NCBI GenBank assembly: GCA_963651445.1
Contig: CAVJPU010000002.1
Span: 97,489 to 161,488, forward strand
Direction of reading: 5' to 3'
Source: a bacterium
GTDB taxonomy: Bacteria > Bacillota_I > Bacilli_A > RFN20 > CAG-826
Length of the DNA: 64,000 nt
This document shows positions 4,451-58,931 of the stretch, in pieces. Position numbers and translations under genes: made by a program. A model generated the notes under the pieces. The model made no database searches. It saw nothing but the letters and a program-made list of their open reading frames with translations, and was not told the DNA's origin. Position 1 is the stretch's first letter; the number at the start of each line of letters is the position of its first letter.

Positions 4451-4481
4451 AATAGTCTCACAAAGGAATGTTGTATTATCT

Positions 4482-4493
4482 TATTTATAAATA
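4482..4493. promoter_or_regulatory. Back-to-back T4-type late promoters, TATTTATAAATA
   Basis: TATAAATA on + strand (4486-4493) lies 30 nt before the uvsW ATG. TATAAATA on - strand (4482-4489) lies upstream of the 4450 ORF/hoc. Confidence 0.65.
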
Positions 4494-4522
4494 ACTATAT
4501 CAAGTTGTTGGTAATTTACGAT

Positions 4523-7526: not shown

Positions 7527-8170
7527 TATAAAACCTCTAAAAACTCTTTAAACCCAGATATTACATGCACATGTGATTTACCACAGTGTGGGCAGTTAAT
7601 GGCCACCGGTAATATAGGTTTAGGTGCTAATAGTATTTTTTTGATATTATTAATATCATCTTCACTTATAGCCGAGTATAAGTCAGTAATTTCTACATCC
7701 GATAAATCGTCAATAGTAAGGCGCTCGGTACCTACATAAATTGCTTTAATAGACTTTGCAATCATTCCAGGGATATCATCGTCATCCCATAATTTTGGCC
7801 ATTGTAGCTCTATTTTAAATTTTTTAAATGGATAAAATTTAGCTAAATTCGAGTCACCGTAATCAACATATGCATTTTTAACATTGATTTTAACTTTATG
7901 TGACTCACCACAAGTACATGTAAATTCTTGGGTTGGCGTATCTTCGTTCTCACTATTAGCCAATAAATTAATCAAAATTAGCTCTGCATCATGCTTAGCA
8001 AAATCTTTACCATTTGTACTATTTTTAATCAAATTAGAATATGCTTCTTTTAATGGTGATGACGAAGCATTGGTTTTGGCTATTGAAATCGCCAGATACT
8101 CTCTTAATGAGTATGTTTTGCAATCAACAAATCCGTCATTTAATTTGACTTTAAATTTTTTCTCAAACAT
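7526..8170 (-). CDS. 26: Baseplate hub subunit gp26
   Basis: 214 aa, divergent from gene 51 and upstream of 25 as in T4. A late promoter lies upstream. Confidence 0.8.
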   Translation of the reverse strand: MFEKKFKVKLNDGFVDCKTYSLREYLAISIAKTNASSSPLKEAYSNLIKNSTNGKDFAKHDAELILINLLANSENEDTPTQEFTCTCGESHKVKINVKNAYVDYGDSNLAKFYPFKKFKIELQWPKLWDDDDIPGMIAKSIKAIYVGTERLTIDDLSDVEITDLYSAISEDDINNIKKILLAPKPILPVAINCPHCGKSHVHVISGFKEFLEVL

Positions 8171-8197
8171 TTGTCTATCCTTAAAAGGAGTTTAATT

Positions 8198-8209
8198 TAT
8201 TTATAAATA
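8198..8209. promoter_or_regulatory. Back-to-back late promoters TATTTATAAATA (genes 26/25 leftward, 51-54 operon rightward)
   Basis: TATAAATA on + strand at 8202-8209 and on - strand at 8198-8205, in the 26/51 divergent intergenic region. Confidence 0.7.
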
Positions 8210-8238
8210 AATTAAAAATAGATAAGAGTACAAACTGT

Positions 8239-8994
8239 ATGGCAAATATCATTAGATGCAAATTGCCTGATGGACTTCATCGATTCTCACCGTTTCTTGT
8301 AAAAGACTATAGAGATTTTTTACTCATACGTAATGACATGGAAACTAAAGATGAAGATGAACAGGCGGATATAGTCAATGAATTGGCTGAAGAATACTTT
8401 CCTAGTTTTCCTAAAACTTGGCAACAATATATATTCCTAAATGTCTTTACCGGGTCCATCGGTAAAACAAAAATACCTATTGTGTTTAAATGCCCTATTT
8501 GTGGCAAATCACAAAAACGATTATTTAATATATCCCAGCCCCCATTAAAAGCTCCAGAAATAAAACTTTCGGATTCCGTTACACTAAGATTCAAATTCCC
8601 GGAAATTGATCAGAAATCGTTTGAACAATTAATTTTGGACAATATAGAAACGGTAGTCCACGAAAATGAAGAATACGCTTGGGAAACATTGGACCAATCT
8701 ACAAAAGATAGCATTATTGATTTGATAGATATTAATAAATTTGAAACTATTGTTAAGTCTTTAAAGCCAATTCATTTTGAATTAACCGTAAAATGCTGTG
8801 ACACACAAAAATTAGTATATGATAATCTATTTTCTATTTTCAAACTTCTAATAAACCCGGATGAAGTATTTCCATTTTATGAGATCAATAGTATTTTAAT
8901 TAAAAATGGCTATGATCAAAGAGCAATTATGGAAATGCTGCCGGCAGAAAGAAGTATTGCATTATCTCTAATTGAAAAGGATTCTAAAAAATGA
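8239..8994 (+). CDS. 51: Baseplate hub assembly catalyst gp51
   Basis: 251 aa (T4 about 249), position between 26 and 27, CPICGK zinc-type motif. Confidence 0.8.
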   Translation: MANIIRCKLPDGLHRFSPFLVKDYRDFLLIRNDMETKDEDEQADIVNELAEEYFPSFPKTWQQYIFLNVFTGSIGKTKIPIVFKCPICGKSQKRLFNISQPPLKAPEIKLSDSVTLRFKFPEIDQKSFEQLILDNIETVVHENEEYAWETLDQSTKDSIIDLIDINKFETIVKSLKPIHFELTVKCCDTQKLVYDNLFSIFKLLINPDEVFPFYEINSILIKNGYDQRAIMEMLPAERSIALSLIEKDSKK

Positions 8995-10577
8995 CAACCC
9001 AACAACGCCCTGGATTTCCTAATATCGATATTAGGCTTTATGAAGATTATGATGCGTGGACAGAAAATAGACATCTTGACCTTTCGGTAACATTTACCAC
9101 ATTGACTCTGCGTGACGGGCTATATGGTAGAAATGAAGGTATTTTACAATTTTATGATTCTAAAAATCTCCATGCAAAGTTAAGTGGTGAGCAAATTGTC
9201 CAAATATCAATGGCAAACGCCAATACTAAAAATGTAGTAAGCCGGTTTTATGGCTGTAAAGATACTTCTGTTTCGGTGGATGAAAAAGGTGACAACATCC
9301 TTGCCTTTAACCTTGCGCCGTTGCATGAAGTGGAAAATGTTAAATTCTCAAGAGCATTCTTTGCAAATGGCACAGAAACTATTCAAACAATGGTAAAATC
9401 ATTATACTCTAACAGAACAGAAATCATGCCAGCGGTTGATGGCATTAATGTGTATTGCCCTCGCGTTGCTTGGATCGGAACATTGACTGACTACATGGAA
9501 TATATTCGCGAAGTTGGTTTAGCTGTTGAATCAGAAACTCATGCTTTTGTTTGGGAAGATGTTAACGGGATTAACATATCTGATTATAAATCTATTATTG
9601 ACAAAGACCCAAAAGTAATGGTGGTAGGTGATCCTGCACAAATTGGCTCATACGTCCAAGATATGAAATATCCATTAGTATGGGATTTCGTTTGGGAAGC
9701 TAAAACAAATCGAAATGTTCGTAATCCTTTAGAAAATGTTACTGTATATGCCCATTCGTTTAACGATAAAGAAATCCAAAGAATTTCTGTAGGTGAAGGT
9801 ACAAATACTATTGTGGTCAGTAGATCCGGCGGCTATTCTGAAATGACATACCGAAATGGTTATGAAGAAGCATTTAGATTGTTGACAATGGCTCAATATG
9901 ACGGATACGCTACTTGTAAAACCTCTGGTGATTTTACAATAACCCCAGGTACAAAAATTAATTTTGGTGATACTAAAGGTCAATTTAGAACTGATTTTTA
10001 TGTAGACGAAGTCATCCATGTTATTTCTAATAATGCATCAGAAACTCACCTTTACATGTTTACAAATGGTAAAGACATTGTTCCGGTAGAAATCGAAAAA
10101 ATCAAAAACGAAATTGAGAACATTACACCACCTTCTGATACAACTGTCCCGGAAGCATCCGGCGATAGAAAAGGCGCCCAATGGGATTTAGATATAATGG
10201 CAACTGTTGTTACGCGCAATGCACAAGGTCGTAAAGCAACAGGTAAATGTGCGTTATATGTTCGTAAAGCATTACAAGCAGCCCAGTTGAATAATTATTT
10301 TGCCGGCGGCTTAGGCAATGCTAATGAAATGGCCCCTAAGTTAGTTAATATGGGATGGTTGGCTGTAGGACAAAATGTAACAAATGTACGAAAAGGCGAC
10401 ATTGCAATATTCCAGCGTACTAATACTCCATTGGGATCTAAATACGGGCATATTGCAATTTATAATGGATCACAATGGGTATCCGATTTTATCCAAAAGA
10501 GTGTACAACCAAATAGCAAAGATAATTTAACATATACATTATATCGTACTCGTTACGGGTACAGTGCCGGAGCATAA
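8991..10577 (+). CDS. 27: Baseplate hub subunit gp27 with C-terminal CHAP/NlpC-P60-like extension
   Basis: The N-terminal ~375 aa is colinear with remembered T4 gp27 (QRPGFPNIDIRLYEDYDAWTENR..., SRSGGYSEMTYRNGYEEAFRLLTMAQYDGYA..., FYVDEVIHVISNNASETHLYMFTNG). About 140 extra aa carry GKCALYVRKAL ... GDIAIFQ ... GHIAIYNG (Cys/His papain-like pattern). Confidence 0.9.
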   Translation: MTTQQRPGFPNIDIRLYEDYDAWTENRHLDLSVTFTTLTLRDGLYGRNEGILQFYDSKNLHAKLSGEQIVQISMANANTKNVVSRFYGCKDTSVSVDEKGDNILAFNLAPLHEVENVKFSRAFFANGTETIQTMVKSLYSNRTEIMPAVDGINVYCPRVAWIGTLTDYMEYIREVGLAVESETHAFVWEDVNGINISDYKSIIDKDPKVMVVGDPAQIGSYVQDMKYPLVWDFVWEAKTNRNVRNPLENVTVYAHSFNDKEIQRISVGEGTNTIVVSRSGGYSEMTYRNGYEEAFRLLTMAQYDGYATCKTSGDFTITPGTKINFGDTKGQFRTDFYVDEVIHVISNNASETHLYMFTNGKDIVPVEIEKIKNEIENITPPSDTTVPEASGDRKGAQWDLDIMATVVTRNAQGRKATGKCALYVRKALQAAQLNNYFAGGLGNANEMAPKLVNMGWLAVGQNVTNVRKGDIAIFQRTNTPLGSKYGHIAIYNGSQWVSDFIQKSVQPNSKDNLTYTLYRTRYGYSAGA

Positions 10578-52860: not shown

Positions 52861-53877
52861 TTATGAAATAACTTCTAACCATTTAGTGCGAATTTCTGCT
52901 TGGACCAATTTCTGCAATTCTGCTTTAAACTTACTAGGTTGTTGGGCATTATTGAGTACAATACCTTCACGTTCGGCTTCAACAAAAATATCTCGCATAG
53001 TAAGCCCAAGAACTTTGCCGAAGTCCTTTGAAGTCACTTCACCAATATGAGAAATAACATTTGATACTCGGTTCCATGTAACAAATTCGTTGAATTGCTC
53101 TAAAAGAGCTAAATCTTCTGGAGGAAGAGGTGTAGGAATTTTTGGAAGCTTACCTTTACTCTTTTCTTTAAATGCATCGGTTTTGTATTTAATAGCTAAA
53201 CGGCTTCCACCATGTAAGAACATCGGTTGATTTGGTTTAATAACTAAACCTTCTGCCGGGTTGCCTGCAGACGGAAGTTGTTTATGTTCAAAGTACATAT
53301 TTTGCCAAGTCAAAGTAGGCACTACAGATTCGAATTCCACAGGAAGTTTTAATAACTGTGTCAAAGGGCCTCGAGCAATTAATGGAGCGATTTTTAATCC
53401 ATAACGAGAACAAAATGTTTGTACATCACTATCAGGCCACCAGCCATGAGAAATCCCAGCGGATTCGCAGTCAAAGTAAACATCAAATACGTATAATGAT
53501 TTAATGTCGCCATAATTAACTTCTTTTTGGATTCCTGGGCCGGCATATTCACCAAAGATCTGAAGTGATTTAAACTCTGGTAGATTTTCGTTTAAATCTT
53601 TTTGGACCTTTTTTAATACAAAATCAAGGTCAGCCATTAAATCTTCATAACCAAAGAATTTTTCTGCTGGTTTAATTTCACCAGATCGTTTTGCCGGAGT
53701 AATAGCGTCTTTTGTAATGATAATAGAAAAATTAGTACCGTGGATTTTTTCTCGTGCAACAAACTCTACGGCATCACTGATTTGCGGACCAACGTTAATG
53801 ATATGCTCAAAACATTTTTCAATAAATTTGGCGTTAGTGTGGTTTTCTAGGCTAGGGTATTTTTTGAAGTTAGACAT
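52861..53877 (-). CDS. rnlB: RNA ligase 2 (RnlB)
   Basis: FKKYPSLENHTNAKFIEK, VAREKIHGTNFSII (KxHGxN adenylation motif), FGEYAGPGIQK, RVSNVISHIGEV..KDFGKVLGLTMRDI are colinear with remembered T4 Rnl2. Confidence 0.93.
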   Translation of the reverse strand: MSNFKKYPSLENHTNAKFIEKCFEHIINVGPQISDAVEFVAREKIHGTNFSIIITKDAITPAKRSGEIKPAEKFFGYEDLMADLDFVLKKVQKDLNENLPEFKSLQIFGEYAGPGIQKEVNYGDIKSLYVFDVYFDCESAGISHGWWPDSDVQTFCSRYGLKIAPLIARGPLTQLLKLPVEFESVVPTLTWQNMYFEHKQLPSAGNPAEGLVIKPNQPMFLHGGSRLAIKYKTDAFKEKSKGKLPKIPTPLPPEDLALLEQFNEFVTWNRVSNVISHIGEVTSKDFGKVLGLTMRDIFVEAEREGIVLNNAQQPSKFKAELQKLVQAEIRTKWLEVIS

Positions 53878-54143: not shown

Positions 54144-54662
54144 TTAAGCTGTCATCCAATCTTTACGTAATTGTGGATCGTTACCCATCAACATTTCGAA
54201 TTTATCTTTCCACAATTCTGGTAATTTGACTACATCAAAATGCGGATCATTAATAACTCGCTCATACTCATTCATTTCCAGACTTCCTAGCCCTTTGATA
54301 TATCGGGCACTCCAGCCTTTGAGATCATCTTTAACTTCTTCATATTCTTCTGAAGTATAGAACCATTTTTGATCTTTACCTTTCTGACAAATCCAAACCG
54401 GTGTTTTAACGAATTTAACTCGACCTTGCTCGAATAATTCTGGCCAATTTGAAAAGAATGCTAATAAAGATGGATAGATAGAACCTGTGCCTAAATTCTC
54501 TAATTAAATGATAGTAGGCTTTCGCCTACCATCTACGTCGGCGTCAGTCATAATAGCGATATTACGATAATTTGTAGAGCCGGTGAATACACGACGAACG
54601 TGTGTTTGAGCTGAGTATGTGTCCATATCGATATCAGTTTTTGCGATTGGAGTTAATTTCAT
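54144..54662 (-). CDS. 60: DNA topoisomerase II large subunit, C-terminal part (gp60-like), interrupted by an internal stop-containing gap (putative translational bypass)
   Basis: ATG 54662 (GAGGT upstream): MKLTPIAKTDIDMDTYSAQTHVRRVFTGSTNYRNIAIMTDADVDG. Then comes a 12-14 codon gap with TAA (54504-54506). The same frame then resumes (T)GSIYPSLLAFFSNWPELFEQGRVKFVKTP...GSLEMNEYERVI...MGNDPQLRKDWMTA*. Both halves are colinear with remembered T4 gp60 (46 + 114 aa; here 45 + 114). Confidence 0.8.
54489..54527 (-). other. Putative coding gap / bypass element (take-off GGU 54530-54528; landing GGC 54491-54489, or GGU 54485-54483)
   Basis: The gap is AGG CGA AAG CCU ACU AUC AUU UAA UUA GAG AAU UUA (GGC). 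A 10-bp stem GAUGGUAGGC/GCCUACUAUC (54533-54510) with a GAAA tetraloop includes the take-off codon. Confidence 0.6.
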
Positions 54663-55476
54663 TGTATACCTCATAAAAGTCATCGTCAGGGCACCAGCCC
54701 GATTTAAATTTAATAAAACATTTTCCAAATAATTTGGATTTGTTACTAATGTTATTATACCTCATCCATTTTGAAATACCCGTTGCTTTAGGACGGTCTT
54801 CATCGTAGTTGTTACAATACCAATCATATAGGCTAGGTATTAATAGAACAATTTGTTTAGAATGTTCCGAATTGTTTTTATAATACCAAGGTCGGGCCCT
54901 TTTGCGTTCTGCTGCTATTGCAGTTGCAGTCTCAAAATTACCAACGCCTTTAAGTCCGAGAGACTTGATTATAGGGTCATTACAGTCTAAAAAATATGTT
55001 TTACCAGTAGAATCTTTAAAGCATGTATGTCGCTTTTTTTATTGATCTTGGTATTTTCTTTGCATAGTTTACACCTTTCCATAAAGATGTATCCACTGTA
55101 TCAACTTTTAGAAGCTTGCAGTGTCCAGTGCTAACATTTCTAAACACTGTTTTGCCTGCCATAAATTCACTAGACCAATCGGAAACTATACTTGAATGTA
55201 TATTTCTTGCAATATCATATGTTCTAGAGCTAATAAACCCCATATGTTTAGAGTTTTCATTCTACCCAATGCAAAGGCCATTTGGCGGTTTTTGTGAATT
55301 TTATACAACAATATATGAGCAATAAAATGCTCTCTATACGTTAGTTTAACTAGATTAGATTTGTCATCCGATCCTCCCATAGAACGCGGCAAAATATGAT
55401 GCCATTCTCCACGTTCTACTTCTAATCGGCCCTGAGACCGTTTAATTAAGTTATTGTATACTACAGCATAATTCAT
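54634..55476 (-). pseudogene. mobA-like HNH homing endonuclease gene, disrupted into three reading frames
   Basis: Frame a (55476-55186) carries the HNH core EWHHILPRSMGGSDDKSNLVKLTYREHFIAH. Frame b is 55243-55016. Frame c (~55030-54634) starts after an A7 run (55034-55040) and ends overlapping the gene 60 start. Its ATG overlaps the stop of the gene 39 middle part (ATGA). Confidence 0.7.
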
Positions 55477-55910
55477 AATAGATCTTTAACTTTCTTCCAT
55501 TGCCCGTCAACTAAAATTTCGTCATTTTCGTTAACAATAGTCCCATCTTCCAGTGTAAAGAATTTACCTTCGCTAGAGTATTCACCGGCAGATCCACCAA
55601 TTGATAAGCCCATGATAGCGCAAATATCAAAAATCTCTTTATTTTTGAGCATATCAGCAGCACTCATACCCCAGGTATTCATTACTTTACCACGCAGCGG
55701 ATAACCACCATGGAGTTCACGATCACGTGTAGAAATCAAATAACCGATCGCACTATTATGAGAAACAGTACCATCAGCAAAACAAAAGCTTTCATCGTCT
55801 TCAACCTGGATGTCTACCATATTGTGATGCTGGCCAGTAGGTTCGTATTCGGTAATATCTTCAAGAATAAATGTAGCTTTGTCGATAAGATTAAAATTAG
55901 TAATATTCAT
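55473..55910 (-). CDS. 39: Split-intein C-fragment (52 aa) fused to the C-terminal 93 aa of gp39 (Toprim region)
   Basis: MNITNF...HHNMVDIQVEDDESFCFADGTVSHN|SAIGYLISTRDRELHGGYPLRGKVMNTWGMSAADMLKNKEIFDICAIMGL. Intein blocks F/G end in HN followed by Ser. The extein continues the GyrB-type EGD-SA.G...R...GYPLRGK motif. Own SD AGAGG. Confidence 0.85.
   Translation of the reverse strand: MNITNFNLIDKATFILEDITEYEPTGQHHNMVDIQVEDDESFCFADGTVSHNSAIGYLISTRDRELHGGYPLRGKVMNTWGMSAADMLKNKEIFDICAIMGLSIGGSAGEYSSEGKFFTLEDGTIVNENDEILVDGQWKKVKDLL
55755..55910 (-). other. IntC (C-terminal split-intein half)
   Basis: Blocks F (VDIQVEDDESFCFADG) and G (TVSHN/S). Confidence 0.8.
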
Positions 55911-57207
55911 TTGATACCTCTTTACCTTGTTTCAAATCATTTATGAATTTATTGACATTATACACCAATACACAATTGCGGAACTTAAGTGCTTTATATT
56001 CTACGTTGTTACAGTATTCCAAATTTTCGGCCTTTGAATTAAAACTGCACAACTCGATATAATATTCTTCACCGTGATACCGTATTTTGATGTCATAAAA
56101 TTTTCTTAACTTACCAGGGTATTTTTTATTGGTGTCTATAACAACCACATCTTCGATGGCCTTTAAAGATGTATACATATCCAATTCTAATGCCGATCTA
56201 AAGAAATGCCCATCAACTGATGATGAATAACTGTAAGAATTTTTAGCTACAAAATTTTTATATCTAATTCGGACTTCTTGAGGTATATCAAAATATTCGA
56301 ATAAATTTAATATTTTGAACGTGTGTTTAAATGCCACTACCCTAGAAACTTTTTTGTCGATTGCCGGATTCTTTGATATGTATGCATCTTCGGCCCTTTG
56401 TAATACTAGACAAAAGCCAATAATTGACATATTTTTACCAATTAAATCTAAACAGTAGCCCTTAAATTTATTTTCGTCATTGACAAATGATGCGTAATTT
56501 GATTGAATCCATGTCTCATTTATTTCGCCATTAACAAACTTCGGTTTAGGTTTAACTCTAGATTTTCTTTTACAAATCTCTTCTTTAGAAAATCTAGAAG
56601 GGTCAAAAATTGACCGTTGTGACCGTTGCAATTCGTTCCATTTGCCAATACCGTTTTTGGAAATAAATTTATTTTTATTTCTATAATATGATAGCTTCCA
56701 ATTAGCAGTTATCTCATTTTGACGACAAGCAGAACGCCCACTATGCGACTGGAATGTAGAATACGATGACACATCCTTATGATTTTTTCTATAAAACGGC
56801 GAGTTATTCCTGTCTAGTATCAATTTTGATGCGTCATCTTCGTTAAGATTATATGCAAATTTTACATACTCTACCGAGTTCGGATTTAATTTTTTAAGGA
56901 AACATCCAGGCTTCCCGCATGCAAAATATTTGCCATATGATTTGTCTCTGGCATGGGTAATATTAGTGCAATCAATTAATATCCCATTAGGAGTTTCTAC
57001 AAGTTCCATAGAATCTTTAAATCCTATGTAGTCCTGTAAATTGCCGCATGCGCATTTTCTAGAATGTTTGGCCTCAAACAACTCAATTAATTCCGGATAC
57101 CGTTTATAAATCATAGTAAACAAGTATTTCTTTAACCGTGGACCAGAATAATTTTTATCAGGTATGGACACCGAAGTGTCCATAAACTTAACGTTTAAAT
57201 GTTTCAT
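55897..57207 (-). CDS. Free-standing endonuclease-like ORF between the intein halves (putative homing endonuclease; Cys-rich N-terminus, PD-(D/E)xK- or Vsr-like C-terminus)
   Basis: 436 aa. ATG overlaps the IntN stop (gtATGA) and the 3' end overlaps the IntC start by 14 nt. N-terminal Cys motifs HSRKCACGN and FACGKPGC. C-terminal GHFFRSALELDMYTSL...FYDIKI...YYIELC gives an E...D...E-x-(K/C) layout. No LAGLIDADG, GIY-YIG or HNH motif seen. Confidence 0.5.
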   Translation of the reverse strand: MKHLNVKFMDTSVSIPDKNYSGPRLKKYLFTMIYKRYPELIELFEAKHSRKCACGNLQDYIGFKDSMELVETPNGILIDCTNITHARDKSYGKYFACGKPGCFLKKLNPNSVEYVKFAYNLNEDDASKLILDRNNSPFYRKNHKDVSSYSTFQSHSGRSACRQNEITANWKLSYYRNKNKFISKNGIGKWNELQRSQRSIFDPSRFSKEEICKRKSRVKPKPKFVNGEINETWIQSNYASFVNDENKFKGYCLDLIGKNMSIIGFCLVLQRAEDAYISKNPAIDKKVSRVVAFKHTFKILNLFEYFDIPQEVRIRYKNFVAKNSYSYSSSVDGHFFRSALELDMYTSLKAIEDVVVIDTNKKYPGKLRKFYDIKIRYHGEEYYIELCSFNSKAENLEYCNNVEYKALKFRNCVLVYNVNKFINDLKQGKEVSNEYY

Positions 57208-58931
57208 ACAATAATTACATCATTTAATGTAATATCTTTAAACTGTTTGAGTTTTAAACCATCGGTATCCATTACAATCATTTCATGAGTAGGACTTGAG
57301 TTAATTCTATGGGTTGTGCCTATAACAGATTTCACAACCATTGATGACTCCGTCAACTCAACAATTTGTCTAGATCTGTTAATAGGACCGCCTAATTCAA
57401 CTAATCGATTTTTTATGAGCTTATGACGGCCCTTTACTAACGAATCTACTCGAATATATTCTACTGTATCCAATACCGTATCATACGCATACAATTTATG
57501 CTCATTTGAATAAATCTTACCGTTAATCTTAATCCCTGGTTTAAGACGAATAGTTTTAGACACTACTTGTTTAAAGTTGTGTTTTGCGGTCATGACTGTA
57601 TCACCAACTTGGATATCTTTGGCCCGGATATTACCATCTAATGTAAAGATTTCGGTATTCTCATCAAAACAGTCACCTTCCGTAAGGAACAAAGTAGTTT
57701 CTAATTCAGAATTACCATATTTGTTTGCTTTGATGTGTTTAGATACTTTAGCTTTTTGAGCAGCTTTGTTGGCTTTAGTTTCGGCGGCTTTTTCGGCAGC
57801 AAGTTTACGAGCAAGTACAGCTTCAATGATTGGCATCAAAATTGATTCAGTATTCATAAATTGTTTGACAATTTTCTTAAAATCTAAATCAATGTGAGAT
57901 TTAATTTCTCCCCATGGCGATGTAAGCCGCTCTTTGGTTTGTGAGTCAAATCGAAGATTGGACATATCTTTTACGAATAATAAAAGTGTCACACATTCTT
58001 TAATTCTGGCTTTGTTTACATCGATTTTAAACTTACGTTTAATTAAAGGAATCAATTCGTTTGAAAGCTCGTCCATAACGTAATCAATATGAGAACCACC
58101 AACTTTAGTATGGATTGCATTTACATATGATAAATGCCTAAACCCATCTTCAGATGTCCCAATTGCTAATTGGACTTTATCACTTTCGTAGCATAAAGCA
58201 TTTTCGTCGTATTGCTTGGCATATTTTTTAAAGTTACCAATGATTCTGCTGCCGTTAAATTTAAACTGAATTTCTGGATAAACCACGGCTAGTGTTTGCA
58301 TTTGGTCTTCAATAATACTAACAATAACATCATCAATTGAATTGCATTCAAAATGACTAAAGTCAGGAATAAATTCTACTTTAGTTCCATGTTTACCACC
58401 GGCTTTAGATTTCCAGTCAATAGTGTCAATATTATTTGTACATTTTACTACAAGAGTATTAGTGCCGTCGCATGTGGTACCGATAAATGAAGTAGAAAAA
58501 ATATTTGTTAATGATGACCCTACACCATTCATACCTGATGTTTTTCGCTCAGAATCTTCACCGAAATTGCCGCCGGCTTTTGTCTTTGTCCATGCAGCCA
58601 CCGGACCGGGAATACTATCGCCTTCCGGGGTTGTAATCATTGCTTGCGGAATACCACGACCGTTATCTTCAACCGTGACAAGATTTTTTTCCGTATCGAT
58701 AGTTACAGAAATTTTATTCGCGAATTCGAAATTGGTTCTAACGGCTTCGTCAATGGAATTATCTCGAATTTCTTCAATTAATTTTACAATTGCTGGCACA
58801 TATTTTAATTTAACGTATTTGCCAAATTGGAACCGTTCATATTCTTCAGATGATGTACTACCAACGTACATCCCAGGACGCTTAATAACATGTTCTTTAT
58901 CACTAAGCATTTTAATTTCATTTTTAATCAA
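57204..58931 (-). CDS. 39: DNA topoisomerase II large subunit gp39, N-terminal 420 aa (GHKL ATPase + transducer), fused to split-intein N-fragment (155 aa)
   Basis: TTG start after GGAG: MIKNEIKMLSDKEHVIKRPGMYVGS, DEAVRTNF, VEDNGRGIP, GMNGVGSS, ...TLFLTEGD|CFDENTEIFTLDGNIRAKDIQVGD... The Toprim EGD is followed by Cys1 and Hint block A. A block B-like SSPTHEMIV lies near the end, then a stop. Confidence 0.88.
   Translation of the reverse strand: MIKNEIKMLSDKEHVIKRPGMYVGSTSSEEYERFQFGKYVKLKYVPAIVKLIEEIRDNSIDEAVRTNFEFANKISVTIDTEKNLVTVEDNGRGIPQAMITTPEGDSIPGPVAAWTKTKAGGNFGEDSERKTSGMNGVGSSLTNIFSTSFIGTTCDGTNTLVVKCTNNIDTIDWKSKAGGKHGTKVEFIPDFSHFECNSIDDVIVSIIEDQMQTLAVVYPEIQFKFNGSRIIGNFKKYAKQYDENALCYESDKVQLAIGTSEDGFRHLSYVNAIHTKVGGSHIDYVMDELSNELIPLIKRKFKIDVNKARIKECVTLLLFVKDMSNLRFDSQTKERLTSPWGEIKSHIDLDFKKIVKQFMNTESILMPIIEAVLARKLAAEKAAETKANKAAQKAKVSKHIKANKYGNSELETTLFLTEGDCFDENTEIFTLDGNIRAKDIQVGDTVMTAKHNFKQVVSKTIRLKPGIKINGKIYSNEHKLYAYDTVLDTVEYIRVDSLVKGRHKLIKNRLVELGGPINRSRQIVELTESSMVVKSVIGTTHRINSSPTHEMIVMDTDGLKLKQFKDITLNDVIIV
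57207..57671 (-). other. IntN (N-terminal split-intein half)
   Basis: Begins at Cys codon 57671-57669, immediately after the ...LTEGD extein residue. Ends at stop 57206-57204. Confidence 0.8.

Follow-up and report, generated by a model that had tools for sequence, protein, structure and literature searches.

Gene 60 of phage T4 is the sole long-range programmed translational bypass to have been dissected experimentally, and natural variants of it show which elements are required. Manning & Atkins catalogued 28 genomic and 13 metagenomic bypass cassettes, all located within a ~1.1-kb 'MobA element' composed of a C-terminal extension of open reading frame (ORF) 1, the MobA HNH endonuclease, an N-terminal extension of ORF2 and the bypass cassette itself (bioRxiv 10.1101/2022.08.31.505936). 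In their Acinetobacter 'clade 5' (Stupor, Abraxas and MGS1), take-off occurs at GGU and landing at GGC, an AGG 'hungry' codon occupies the position where the stop stood, with UAG out of frame, and the loops are of the GNRA type (GCAA in Stupor and Abraxas, GAAA in MGS1); the 'hungry codon' idea was raised there without a test (10.1101/2022.08.31.505936). Here we analyze the window, a 64-kb stretch of contig CAVJPU010000002.1 to whose positions all coordinates refer, in which a gp60-like ORF (ORF2, minus strand) of the topoisomerase II large-subunit gene is interrupted by a short insert. The comparisons below make it very probable that this insert is a programmed translational bypass cassette of the T4 gene 60 type. 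It is a new, fairly divergent member of the variant class described in the 2022 preprint (AGG-type below), not a new phenomenon.

The elements of the ORF2 cassette are arranged as follows, with the gap counted by the T4 convention, so that it begins at the base following take-off and includes the landing codon:

54669-54672, minus strand: Shine-Dalgarno sequence GAGG of ORF2, 6 nt upstream of the ATG, read from the sequence
54662-54660, minus strand: ORF2 start codon ATG, read from the sequence
54528-54662, minus strand: ORF2 proximal segment, 45 codons from the ATG to the take-off Gly, MKLTPIAKTDIDMDTYSAQTHVRRVFTGSTNYRNIAIMTDADVDG, made up of the element-encoded N-terminal extension and the homology region
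54510-54533, minus strand: take-off stem-loop with a 10-bp stem, GAUGGUAGGC/GCCUACUAUC, a GAAA tetraloop and the take-off codon within the stem, assigned from fold and covariation
54528-54530, minus strand: take-off codon GGU (Gly45), GGT being invariant across AGG-type cassettes
54525-54527, minus strand: A-site codon AGG (rare Arg) at the position of the UAG of T4, invariant in the AGG-type class
54489-54527, minus strand: coding gap of 39 nt, measured against the unsplit GGT ACT GGC
54504-54506, minus strand: in-frame UAA, 7 codons past take-off, which would end the product of non-hopping ribosomes at 52 aa
54498-54500, minus strand: mini Shine-Dalgarno GAG, with a 6-nt spacer (AAUUUA) to the landing codon, in an AU-rich stretch
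54489-54491, minus strand: landing codon GGC, the first GGY triplet 3' of the hairpin, invariant in AGG-type cassettes
54144-54488, minus strand: ORF2 distal segment, 114 codons plus TAA (54146-54144), TGSIYPSLL...DWMTA, Pfam TOPRIM_C

The proximal segment matches PHROG 19082 'DNA topoisomerase II' (E = 5.5e-20) and reaches the break as ...NIAIMTDADVDG, with the Gly of DADVDG encoded by GGT 54530-54528. After this codon the frame continues as AGG CGA AAG CCT ACT ATC ATT TAA, followed by TTA GAG AAT TTA GGC, and the conserved topoisomerase sequence is taken up at ACA GGT TCT ATC TAT CCA, the opening of the distal segment. As in cassettes of the gene 60 type, the insertion point is the invariant Asp45/Gly46 of DADxDG in the topoisomerase II large-subunit gene, and a skip restores the protein: passage from GGT to GGC gives a 159-aa gp60-like subunit with the junction DADVDG-TGSIYPSLL. 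The codon straight after take-off is poorly decoded (a rare AGG and not a stop, as in clade 5), and a mini Shine-Dalgarno, which can be GAG, GGA, AGG or GGG across such cassettes and is GAG here, precedes the landing codon by 6 nt, within the 5-7 nt of such cassettes, and the 3' gap is AU-rich.

The landing site was assigned by comparison with unsplit genes. The nearest annotated relatives are T4-like Acinetobacter phages, among which PhT2 and Apostate carry an unsplit '60plus39' gene reading ...NYRNIAIMTDADVDGTGSIYPSLLAFFSNWPELFEQGR, with the codons GAT GGT ACT GGC TCG. Deletion of 39 nt from the window sequence (AGG through GGC, 54527-54489) yields the PhT2/Apostate junction DADVDG TGSIYPSLL exactly; since this removal restores the unsplit DGTGS, GGC 54491-54489 is the landing codon. 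A second Gly codon, GGT 54485-54483, lies beyond it and is separated from it by ACA. Landing at this GGT (a 45-nt gap) was rejected: the codon varies among GGT, GGC and GGA in relatives, and the product would miss the conserved TG. In unsplit genes the Gly codon at the take-off site is GGT, GGC, GGA or GGG; because it is free to vary there, the fixed GGT/GGC pair is a constraint that the cassette imposes. Matched take-off and landing codons also occur in other classes, namely GGA/GGA in T4, GGG/GGA in a Proteus-type locus (L087), and GAU/GAC, one codon upstream, in phi1_092060.

An earlier note on this DNA had proposed a diverged gene 60-type bypass element here. The bases and coordinates that it gave for the frame, break, stop and resumption point were correct to the base when the minus strand was reread. 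Of its two options for the gap, 39-45 nt with landing on GGC or GGT, the 39-nt gap ending at the invariant GGC, which restores DGTGS, holds, and the 45-nt gap ending at the variable GGT does not. The alignment with T4 gene 60 and unsplit homologues that it called for places the insertion at the same site, and removal of the 39 nt gives the PhT2/Apostate sequence. The mechanism that it invoked is strongly supported by comparison, through the restored junction and the elements shared across lineages.

The distal segment, as had been claimed, is without a start of its own: the ORF listing of the window shows no ATG, GTG or TTG in the distal frame between TAA 54504 and ATG 54275, a span of 76 codons. 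This bears on reinitiation, in which ribosomes would terminate at UAA 54506-54504 and start again downstream at a non-canonical codon with help from the GAG, producing a separate C-terminal polypeptide and a topoisomerase in one more piece. The GAG between the stop and the resumption point, within AU-rich sequence, does resemble an initiation region, and the protein is already tolerated in several pieces. However, an in-frame AUG, GUG or UUG is missing over those 76 codons, the sole nearby AUU is out of frame with a UAG after it, the matched take-off and landing codons would be left unexplained, and the DxDxDG motif would be cut off from the residues that directly follow it. We regard reinitiation as quite unlikely.

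Under the bypass interpretation, a MobA homing-endonuclease element would have brought the cassette into the topoisomerase II large-subunit gene of a T4-like phage. Ribosomes would start at AUG 54662 and synthesize a 45-residue nascent peptide that keeps the residues priming the T4 ribosome for bypass. With peptidyl-tRNA-Gly on GGU (54530-54528) in the P site and the rare AGG in the A site, decoding is proposed to stall as it does at UAG in T4, since AGG is among the rarest codons of the genome. The very stable GAAA-capped hairpin, including the take-off codon, would then form and the tRNA would unpair from GGU; the ribosome would slide over 39 nt without decoding while GAG base-pairs to the anti-Shine-Dalgarno sequence, the same tRNA-Gly, which reads both GGU and GGC, would re-pair at GGC 54491-54489, and decoding would resume at ACA. 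Ribosomes that decode AGG instead would stop at UAA after 7 more codons, releasing the 52-aa peptide. The bypass product would carry the junction peptide ...IAIMTDADVDGTGSIYPSLLAFFSNWPELFEQGR / NIAIMTDADVDGTGSIYPSLLAFFSNWPELFEQGR. That ribosomes bypass the gap, how efficiently they would do so and what AGG contributes are inferred, the mechanism by homology with T4.

The distribution of AGG-type cassettes was then established from databases. The productive search queried a protein database with the truncated 52-aa product, ...DADVDGRRKPTII, and then fetched the encoding contigs; it disclosed at least seven more distinct AGG-type variants. The resulting set comprises the window and eight further versions: the Stupor/Abraxas/LemonAid/AB-Navy group, MGS1, L114/L115, L116, L117-L119, L120/L124, L121 and L122/L123. 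Several elements are invariant across the class: the sequence GGT-AGG-CG(A/C)AA-GCC-TA, an in-frame TAA 5-7 codons past take-off, GAG with an AU-rich spacer of 6-7 nt before landing, and a landing GGC that is always the first GGY beyond the hairpin. The junction is always DG-(T/L)GSI(Y/F)P. Gap lengths differ:

39 nt: window
40 nt: L114/L115 and MGS1
41 nt: L121 and L122/L123
42 nt: Stupor group, L117-L120 and L124
47 nt: L116

The window thus has the shortest gap of the class, together with its most stable hairpin. As gaps of 39-47 nt occupy all three frames, the in-frame gap of the window is a coincidence, and an in-frame gap as a functional property of the class was rejected on the same ground. 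The earlier note had listed a gap that is a multiple of three as a novel aspect, which holds for the 39 nt of the window and the 42 nt of the Stupor group but is not a class feature, since gaps of 40, 41 and 47 nt exist. Given the shared elements and gaps in all three frames, only a hop that is independent of frame accounts for all AGG-type cassettes.

The same lengths decide on readthrough, in which AGG...AUU and the UAA would be decoded in frame to add 13 residues (RRKPTII-X-LENLG) after DADVDG. The 39-nt gap of the window is in frame, as is the 42-nt gap of the Stupor group, so each could formally be read through. Sister cassettes with gaps of 40, 41 and 47 nt would place the distal part in the wrong frame, and gaps in all three frames exclude readthrough as a general mechanism; moreover, UAA is the strongest stop and ends ORF2 itself, and a 13-residue insertion would fall inside the invariant Toprim motif. 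For the window, readthrough is very unlikely.

Recurrence of the cassette also bears on the idea that the 39 nt are an assembly artefact or are removed at the RNA level. We found no point in its support. Four phage genomes in GenBank and no fewer than seven independent metagenome assemblies contain the same cassette architecture; furthermore, a self-splicing intron would have to be far longer than 39 nt, and intron features of the Rfam type are not to be expected at such a size. The chance of this explanation is close to negligible.

Searches by pattern and by related locus were negative. An exact-pattern scan of IMG/VR for GGTAGGCGNAAGCCTAC returned 36 matches, all of them unrelated intergenic GNRA hairpins and none in a topoisomerase gene, and a scan of JGI metagenome contigs for GAYGGTAGGCGNAAGCNTACTAT returned no match. 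A search of IMG/VR for related loci with an ORF2 alignment found no AGG-type cassette, all classifiable loci being unsplit except the Proteus-type L087. As a side observation, the hairpin GGTAGGCG[A/G]AAGCCTAC recurs intergenically, several times per genome, in unrelated IMG/VR contigs of large phages, mostly of ~178 kb (L011, L012, L027, L031, L032, L034, L036 and L037); its loop is GAAA, or GGAA in L036. By analogy with the recurrent CUUCGG hairpins of T4, it may be a terminator or an RNA-stability hairpin.

At the window locus, the hairpin GAUGGUAGGC-GAAA-GCCUACUAUC was evaluated for stability and uniqueness. The previously proposed 10-bp, GAAA-capped stem holding the take-off codon was confirmed, with a folding energy of -17.1 kcal/mol (z = -7.4; none of 200 shuffles being as stable), compared with -11.4 to -13.8 kcal/mol for the other AGG-type hairpins and -14.7 kcal/mol for T4. 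Its 17-mer motif occurs once in the window even when 2 mismatches are allowed (expected 0.00). The A-site codon is likewise unusual: in window ORFs of at least 150 aa, AGG accounts for 0.061% of codons (10 of 16,346), with only one sense codon being rarer, and it makes up 0.08% of codons in Acinetobacter (bioRxiv 10.1101/2022.08.31.505936).

The nascent peptide is conserved at the positions that matter in T4. Residues Y16, Q19, V22, R24, Y33, M39 and T40 have been implicated in T4 bypass (bioRxiv 10.1101/2022.08.31.505936), and all of them have counterparts in the window, where Y16, Q19, V22, R23, R24, Y32, M38 and T39 are invariant relative to T4 and MGS1; Y32, M38 and T39 correspond to Y33, M39 and T40 of T4, the offset in numbering arising from a one-residue deletion.

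Both halves of ORF2 are under purifying selection. The ratio of nonsynonymous to synonymous substitution rates (dN/dS) is 0.06-0.11 over the distal 114 codons (window versus LemonAid, Stupor and PhT2) and ~0.03 over the proximal segment (33 codons compared with LemonAid), with the synonymous rate (dS) above 1 in each case. Such low values at dS >1 indicate that both halves are translated in gap-bearing lineages. They also speak to the possibility of a decaying pseudogene, in which the insert has killed the gene and only the truncated 52-aa peptide is made. The adjoining MobA is indeed a pseudogene, and in related phages the pieces are annotated as separate broken ORFs; the cassettes of Stupor, Abraxas, LemonAid and AB-Navy-v2 appear as broken 'topoisomerase II' fragments adjoining a homing endonuclease. 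By contrast, the dN/dS of the distal 114 codons is unexpected for untranslated sequence, and no stops or indels are found in any cassette-bearing lineage with a readable distal part. A decaying pseudogene is therefore hardly to be credited.

Covariation in the hairpin was examined in a loop-anchored alignment of 10 cassette variants. Pairing is maintained in 88% of cells, against 24-41% when the partners are slid. Compensatory changes occur at 5 of the 10 pairs and none of 500 shuffles attains the observed covariation score, although the covariation lies mostly between classes, the sequences are related and the shuffle control overstates the significance; it is supportive only of a bypass cassette and falls short of proof. 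This limit weighs against the bypass interpretation, as do three further points. AGG in the A site is a sense codon, so some ribosomes may read on and terminate, and efficiency could be low. A scan for phage tRNA-Arg and tRNA-Gly found no tRNA gene within the 64-kb window, an AGG-decoding tRNA elsewhere in the genome being possible. The searchable literature holds no experiment on any non-T4 cassette, only T4 having been tested.

Overall, bypass is strongly favoured by the sequence anatomy, by its conservation and covariation between lineages, by purifying selection acting on the two halves and by the exact restoration of the uninterrupted protein, and the rival explanations taken together are improbable. 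A further proposal is held much more tentatively than bypass itself: AGG-type bypass may be mechanistically distinct and tunable, with take-off triggered by scarcity of the AGG-reading tRNA and not by a stop competing with release factor, and the window, with the shortest gap and strongest hairpin of the class, may be its minimal natural hairpin-containing example. We consider this possible but doubtful. If true, the ratio of full-length to 52-aa product would track the translational state of the host or a phage-supplied tRNA-Arg.

Upstream of ORF2, the architecture of the MobA element is present in the window, with the C-terminal extension of ORF1, an overlapping HNH MobA and the N-terminal extension of ORF2. 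The MobA gene is decayed:

54634-55476, minus strand: pseudogene of the HNH homing endonuclease MobA, carrying two frameshifts (frame 1 to 0 to 1), from tblastn and three-frame translation

By tblastn it is 57% identical to LemonAid MobA, and its HNH match lies under the Pfam cut-off. Both neighbours overlap it out of frame, the end of ORF1 through ATGA and the start of ORF2 by 29 nt. The bypass cassette is perfectly preserved beside this decayed gene; in L124, MobA is intact (279 aa). The window, with a GC content of 35.4%, is part of a contig of 167,038 bp from a T4-like phage. When a 20-kb segment was compared by megablast, the best match was Acinetobacter phage Acj61, at ~75% identity over 6% of the length; the phage is only distantly related to sequenced phages, and its host is likely Acinetobacter or a close relative.

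The gp39-like ORF1 looks like a gene split by a putative split intein, to judge from its sequence hallmarks. It comprises the following parts:

57204-58931, minus strand: ORF1 piece A, 575 aa, residues 1-417 of the topoisomerase II large subunit (58931-57672, ending ...LFLTEGD) followed by the intein N-terminal half (CFDENTEIF...)
55897-57207, minus strand: free-standing 436-aa ORF between the intein halves, in another frame
55473-55910, minus strand: ORF1 piece C, 145 aa, the intein C-terminal half (...VSHN-S), topoisomerase residues 418-474 and the MobA-element extension GEYSSEGKFFTLEDGTIVNENDEILVDGQWKKVKDLL

The extension GEYSSEGKFFTLEDGTIVNENDEILVDGQWKKVKDLL resembles that of LemonAid and, more distantly, that of T4. 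Piece A contains Pfam HATPase_c and DNA_gyraseB above the cut-offs. The intein N-terminal half matches Hint_2 at E = 3e-5, below the cut-off (24.9 versus 28.4 bits), and the C-terminal half matches TIGR01443 intein_Cterm at 16.0 bits against a cut-off of 15.6. Intein hallmarks lie at the exact extein boundaries, including Cys1 (TEGD-CFDEN...), the terminal His-Asn and the +1 Ser (...VSHN-SAIGYL), and TEGDSAIGYL is contiguous in the unsplit PhT2; the spliced junction would read ...LFLTEGDSAIGYLISTR. Sequence and profile searches of PDB gave no match for the intein, and a single-sequence AlphaFold model of the fused halves reached a predicted local distance difference test score of 28 and went unused.

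The three ORFs lie in frames 0, +2 and 0, with overlaps of ATGA and 14 nt. The same layout is found in L124, together with the hop and an intact MobA, and in L125, which has neither MobA nor gap; L126 has the first two ORFs, after which the contig ends. Because the layout recurs in L124 and, without MobA or gap, in L125, the three-ORF intein is a mobile element in its own right, belonging to the 'fractured gene' type, that is, a split intein with a free-standing homing endonuclease gene between its halves (Dassa et al. 2009, PMC2677866). With those 'fractured genes' (PMC2677866) it shares an ORF made up of N-extein and IntN, a separate ORF in a different frame and an ORF made up of IntC and C-extein, the residues Cys1, terminal His-Asn and +1 Ser, and insertion in a catalytic motif (TEGD-SAIG, Toprim); it differs in that the C-terminal half of the middle ORF matches no described endonuclease family.

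The 436-aa ORF itself gave no match in Pfam, PHROG, NCBIfam or PDB by sequence and profile searches, and only five relatives were found in a database of 5.8 billion clusters. Its residues ~90-205 have a module in common with MGS60 (37% identity, E = 2e-16) and with MGS65, both of them members of the endonuclease alignment of the preprint (File S5, 10.1101/2022.08.31.505936). It is probably a homing endonuclease of an unclassified family, and its C-terminal ~230 aa, which fall in no class, may form an undescribed catalytic domain. L125, a metagenomic relative, also shows an RNA ligase 2 gene (7671-9722) that is a 683-aa ORF with an intein and a LAGLIDADG endonuclease; the window Rnl2 is uninterrupted (52861-53877, 338 aa). 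The topoisomerase gene of the window carries a striking stack of selfish elements, in which a putative split intein and the ORF that belongs to it are joined by a decayed MobA and the proposed hop, and its large subunit is predicted to need trans-splicing, subunit assembly and a ribosome hop.

Compared with T4 gene 60 (AF158101, misc_feature 2803-2852), the window cassette has the same insertion after the Gly of DADxDG, a GAG 6 nt before landing, an AU-rich 3' gap and a 114-codon distal part; the nascent-peptide residues are kept, and a MobA pseudogene lies upstream in both. The halves of 45 + 114 codons set against 46 + 114 in T4, as previously stated, were confirmed on the T4 sequence, and the T4 stem, GGAUAGCC-UUCG-GGCUAUCU, is as the earlier note gave it. 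T4 combines GGA/GGA with an A-site UAG, a loop of UUCG and a gap of 50 nt, whereas the window uses GGU/GGC, AGG, GAAA and 39 nt. The 5' arm of the window stem is one base shorter (GGA-UAG to GG-UAG); at the second stem pair counted from the loop, C-G in T4 is reversed to G-C. The 3' parts of the gap are visibly homologous (TTAATTAGAGAATTTAGGC in the window, TAATTAAGAGATTATTGGA in T4). In addition, a GGC in the 5' arm of the window stem (G-GUA-GGC) parallels the unscanned cognate GGG of the T4 hairpin noted in a 2024 preprint.

The Asp-take-off cassettes of phi1_092060, fHyAci03, AC4 and KARL-1 share with the window the host group, the MobA element and the restored junction DADVD-GTGSIYP. They differ in taking off one codon earlier, from GAU to GAC; their A-site codon is UAG, their loop UUCG and their gap 43 nt long.

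The closest likeness is to the AGG-type cassettes of clade 5. These have in common with the window GGU/GGC, AGG in the A site, UAG one nt out of frame, an in-frame stop in the gap, a GNRA loop (GAAA in the window as in MGS1, GCAA in Stupor), the GAG mini Shine-Dalgarno, the 45-aa N-terminal extension and the MobA element context. The window cassette region is just 80-81% identical to those of Stupor, Abraxas, LemonAid and AB-Navy (AB-Navy-v2). Its gap is 39 nt where others of the class have 40-47, and its perfect 10-bp stem folds at -17.1 rather than -11.4 to -13.8 kcal/mol; its MobA is frameshifted, and its ORF1 is additionally split by the intein. Identity of the window with MGS1 was considered and rejected, as the gap sequence and length differ and the ORF2 proteins are 66% identical: the MGS1 gap, AGGCGAAAGCGTACTATACTGTAACTTCGAGATGATTGGC (Table S2 of 10.1101/2022.08.31.505936), is 40 nt long and its stem has a mismatch. 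The preprint says that the three AGG-type cassettes Stupor, Abraxas and MGS1 'shift frame'; counted here, the gap in Stupor/Abraxas (L002 and L005, region 4464-4514) is 42 nt and in frame. That remark is wrong for Stupor/Abraxas (42 nt), and also for the window (39 nt), since these gaps are multiples of three; of the three cassettes named, only MGS1 (40 nt) shifts.

Two assertions of the earlier note do not survive this comparison. It had taken bypass to be known essentially from T4 and the locus to be a second variant, whereas 28 genomic and 13 metagenomic cassettes were already in 10.1101/2022.08.31.505936; and AGG, the shifted UAG, the GNRA loop and GGU/GGC, which it had presented as novel, are all four described there for clade 5. 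Because the class and its features had been described, the picture held by specialists is unchanged. Within the AGG-type, GGU-AGG, the stem, the in-frame UAA, GAG with its spacer of 6-7 nt and GGC are fixed, whereas gap length (39-47 nt), reading frame and 3' gap sequence are free; these lineages form a ready-made mutational series, and one statement of the preprint on frame is corrected. To this series the window contributes an independent, well-preserved example in which, compared with T4, a rare sense codon stands for the stop and a GNRA loop for UUCG.

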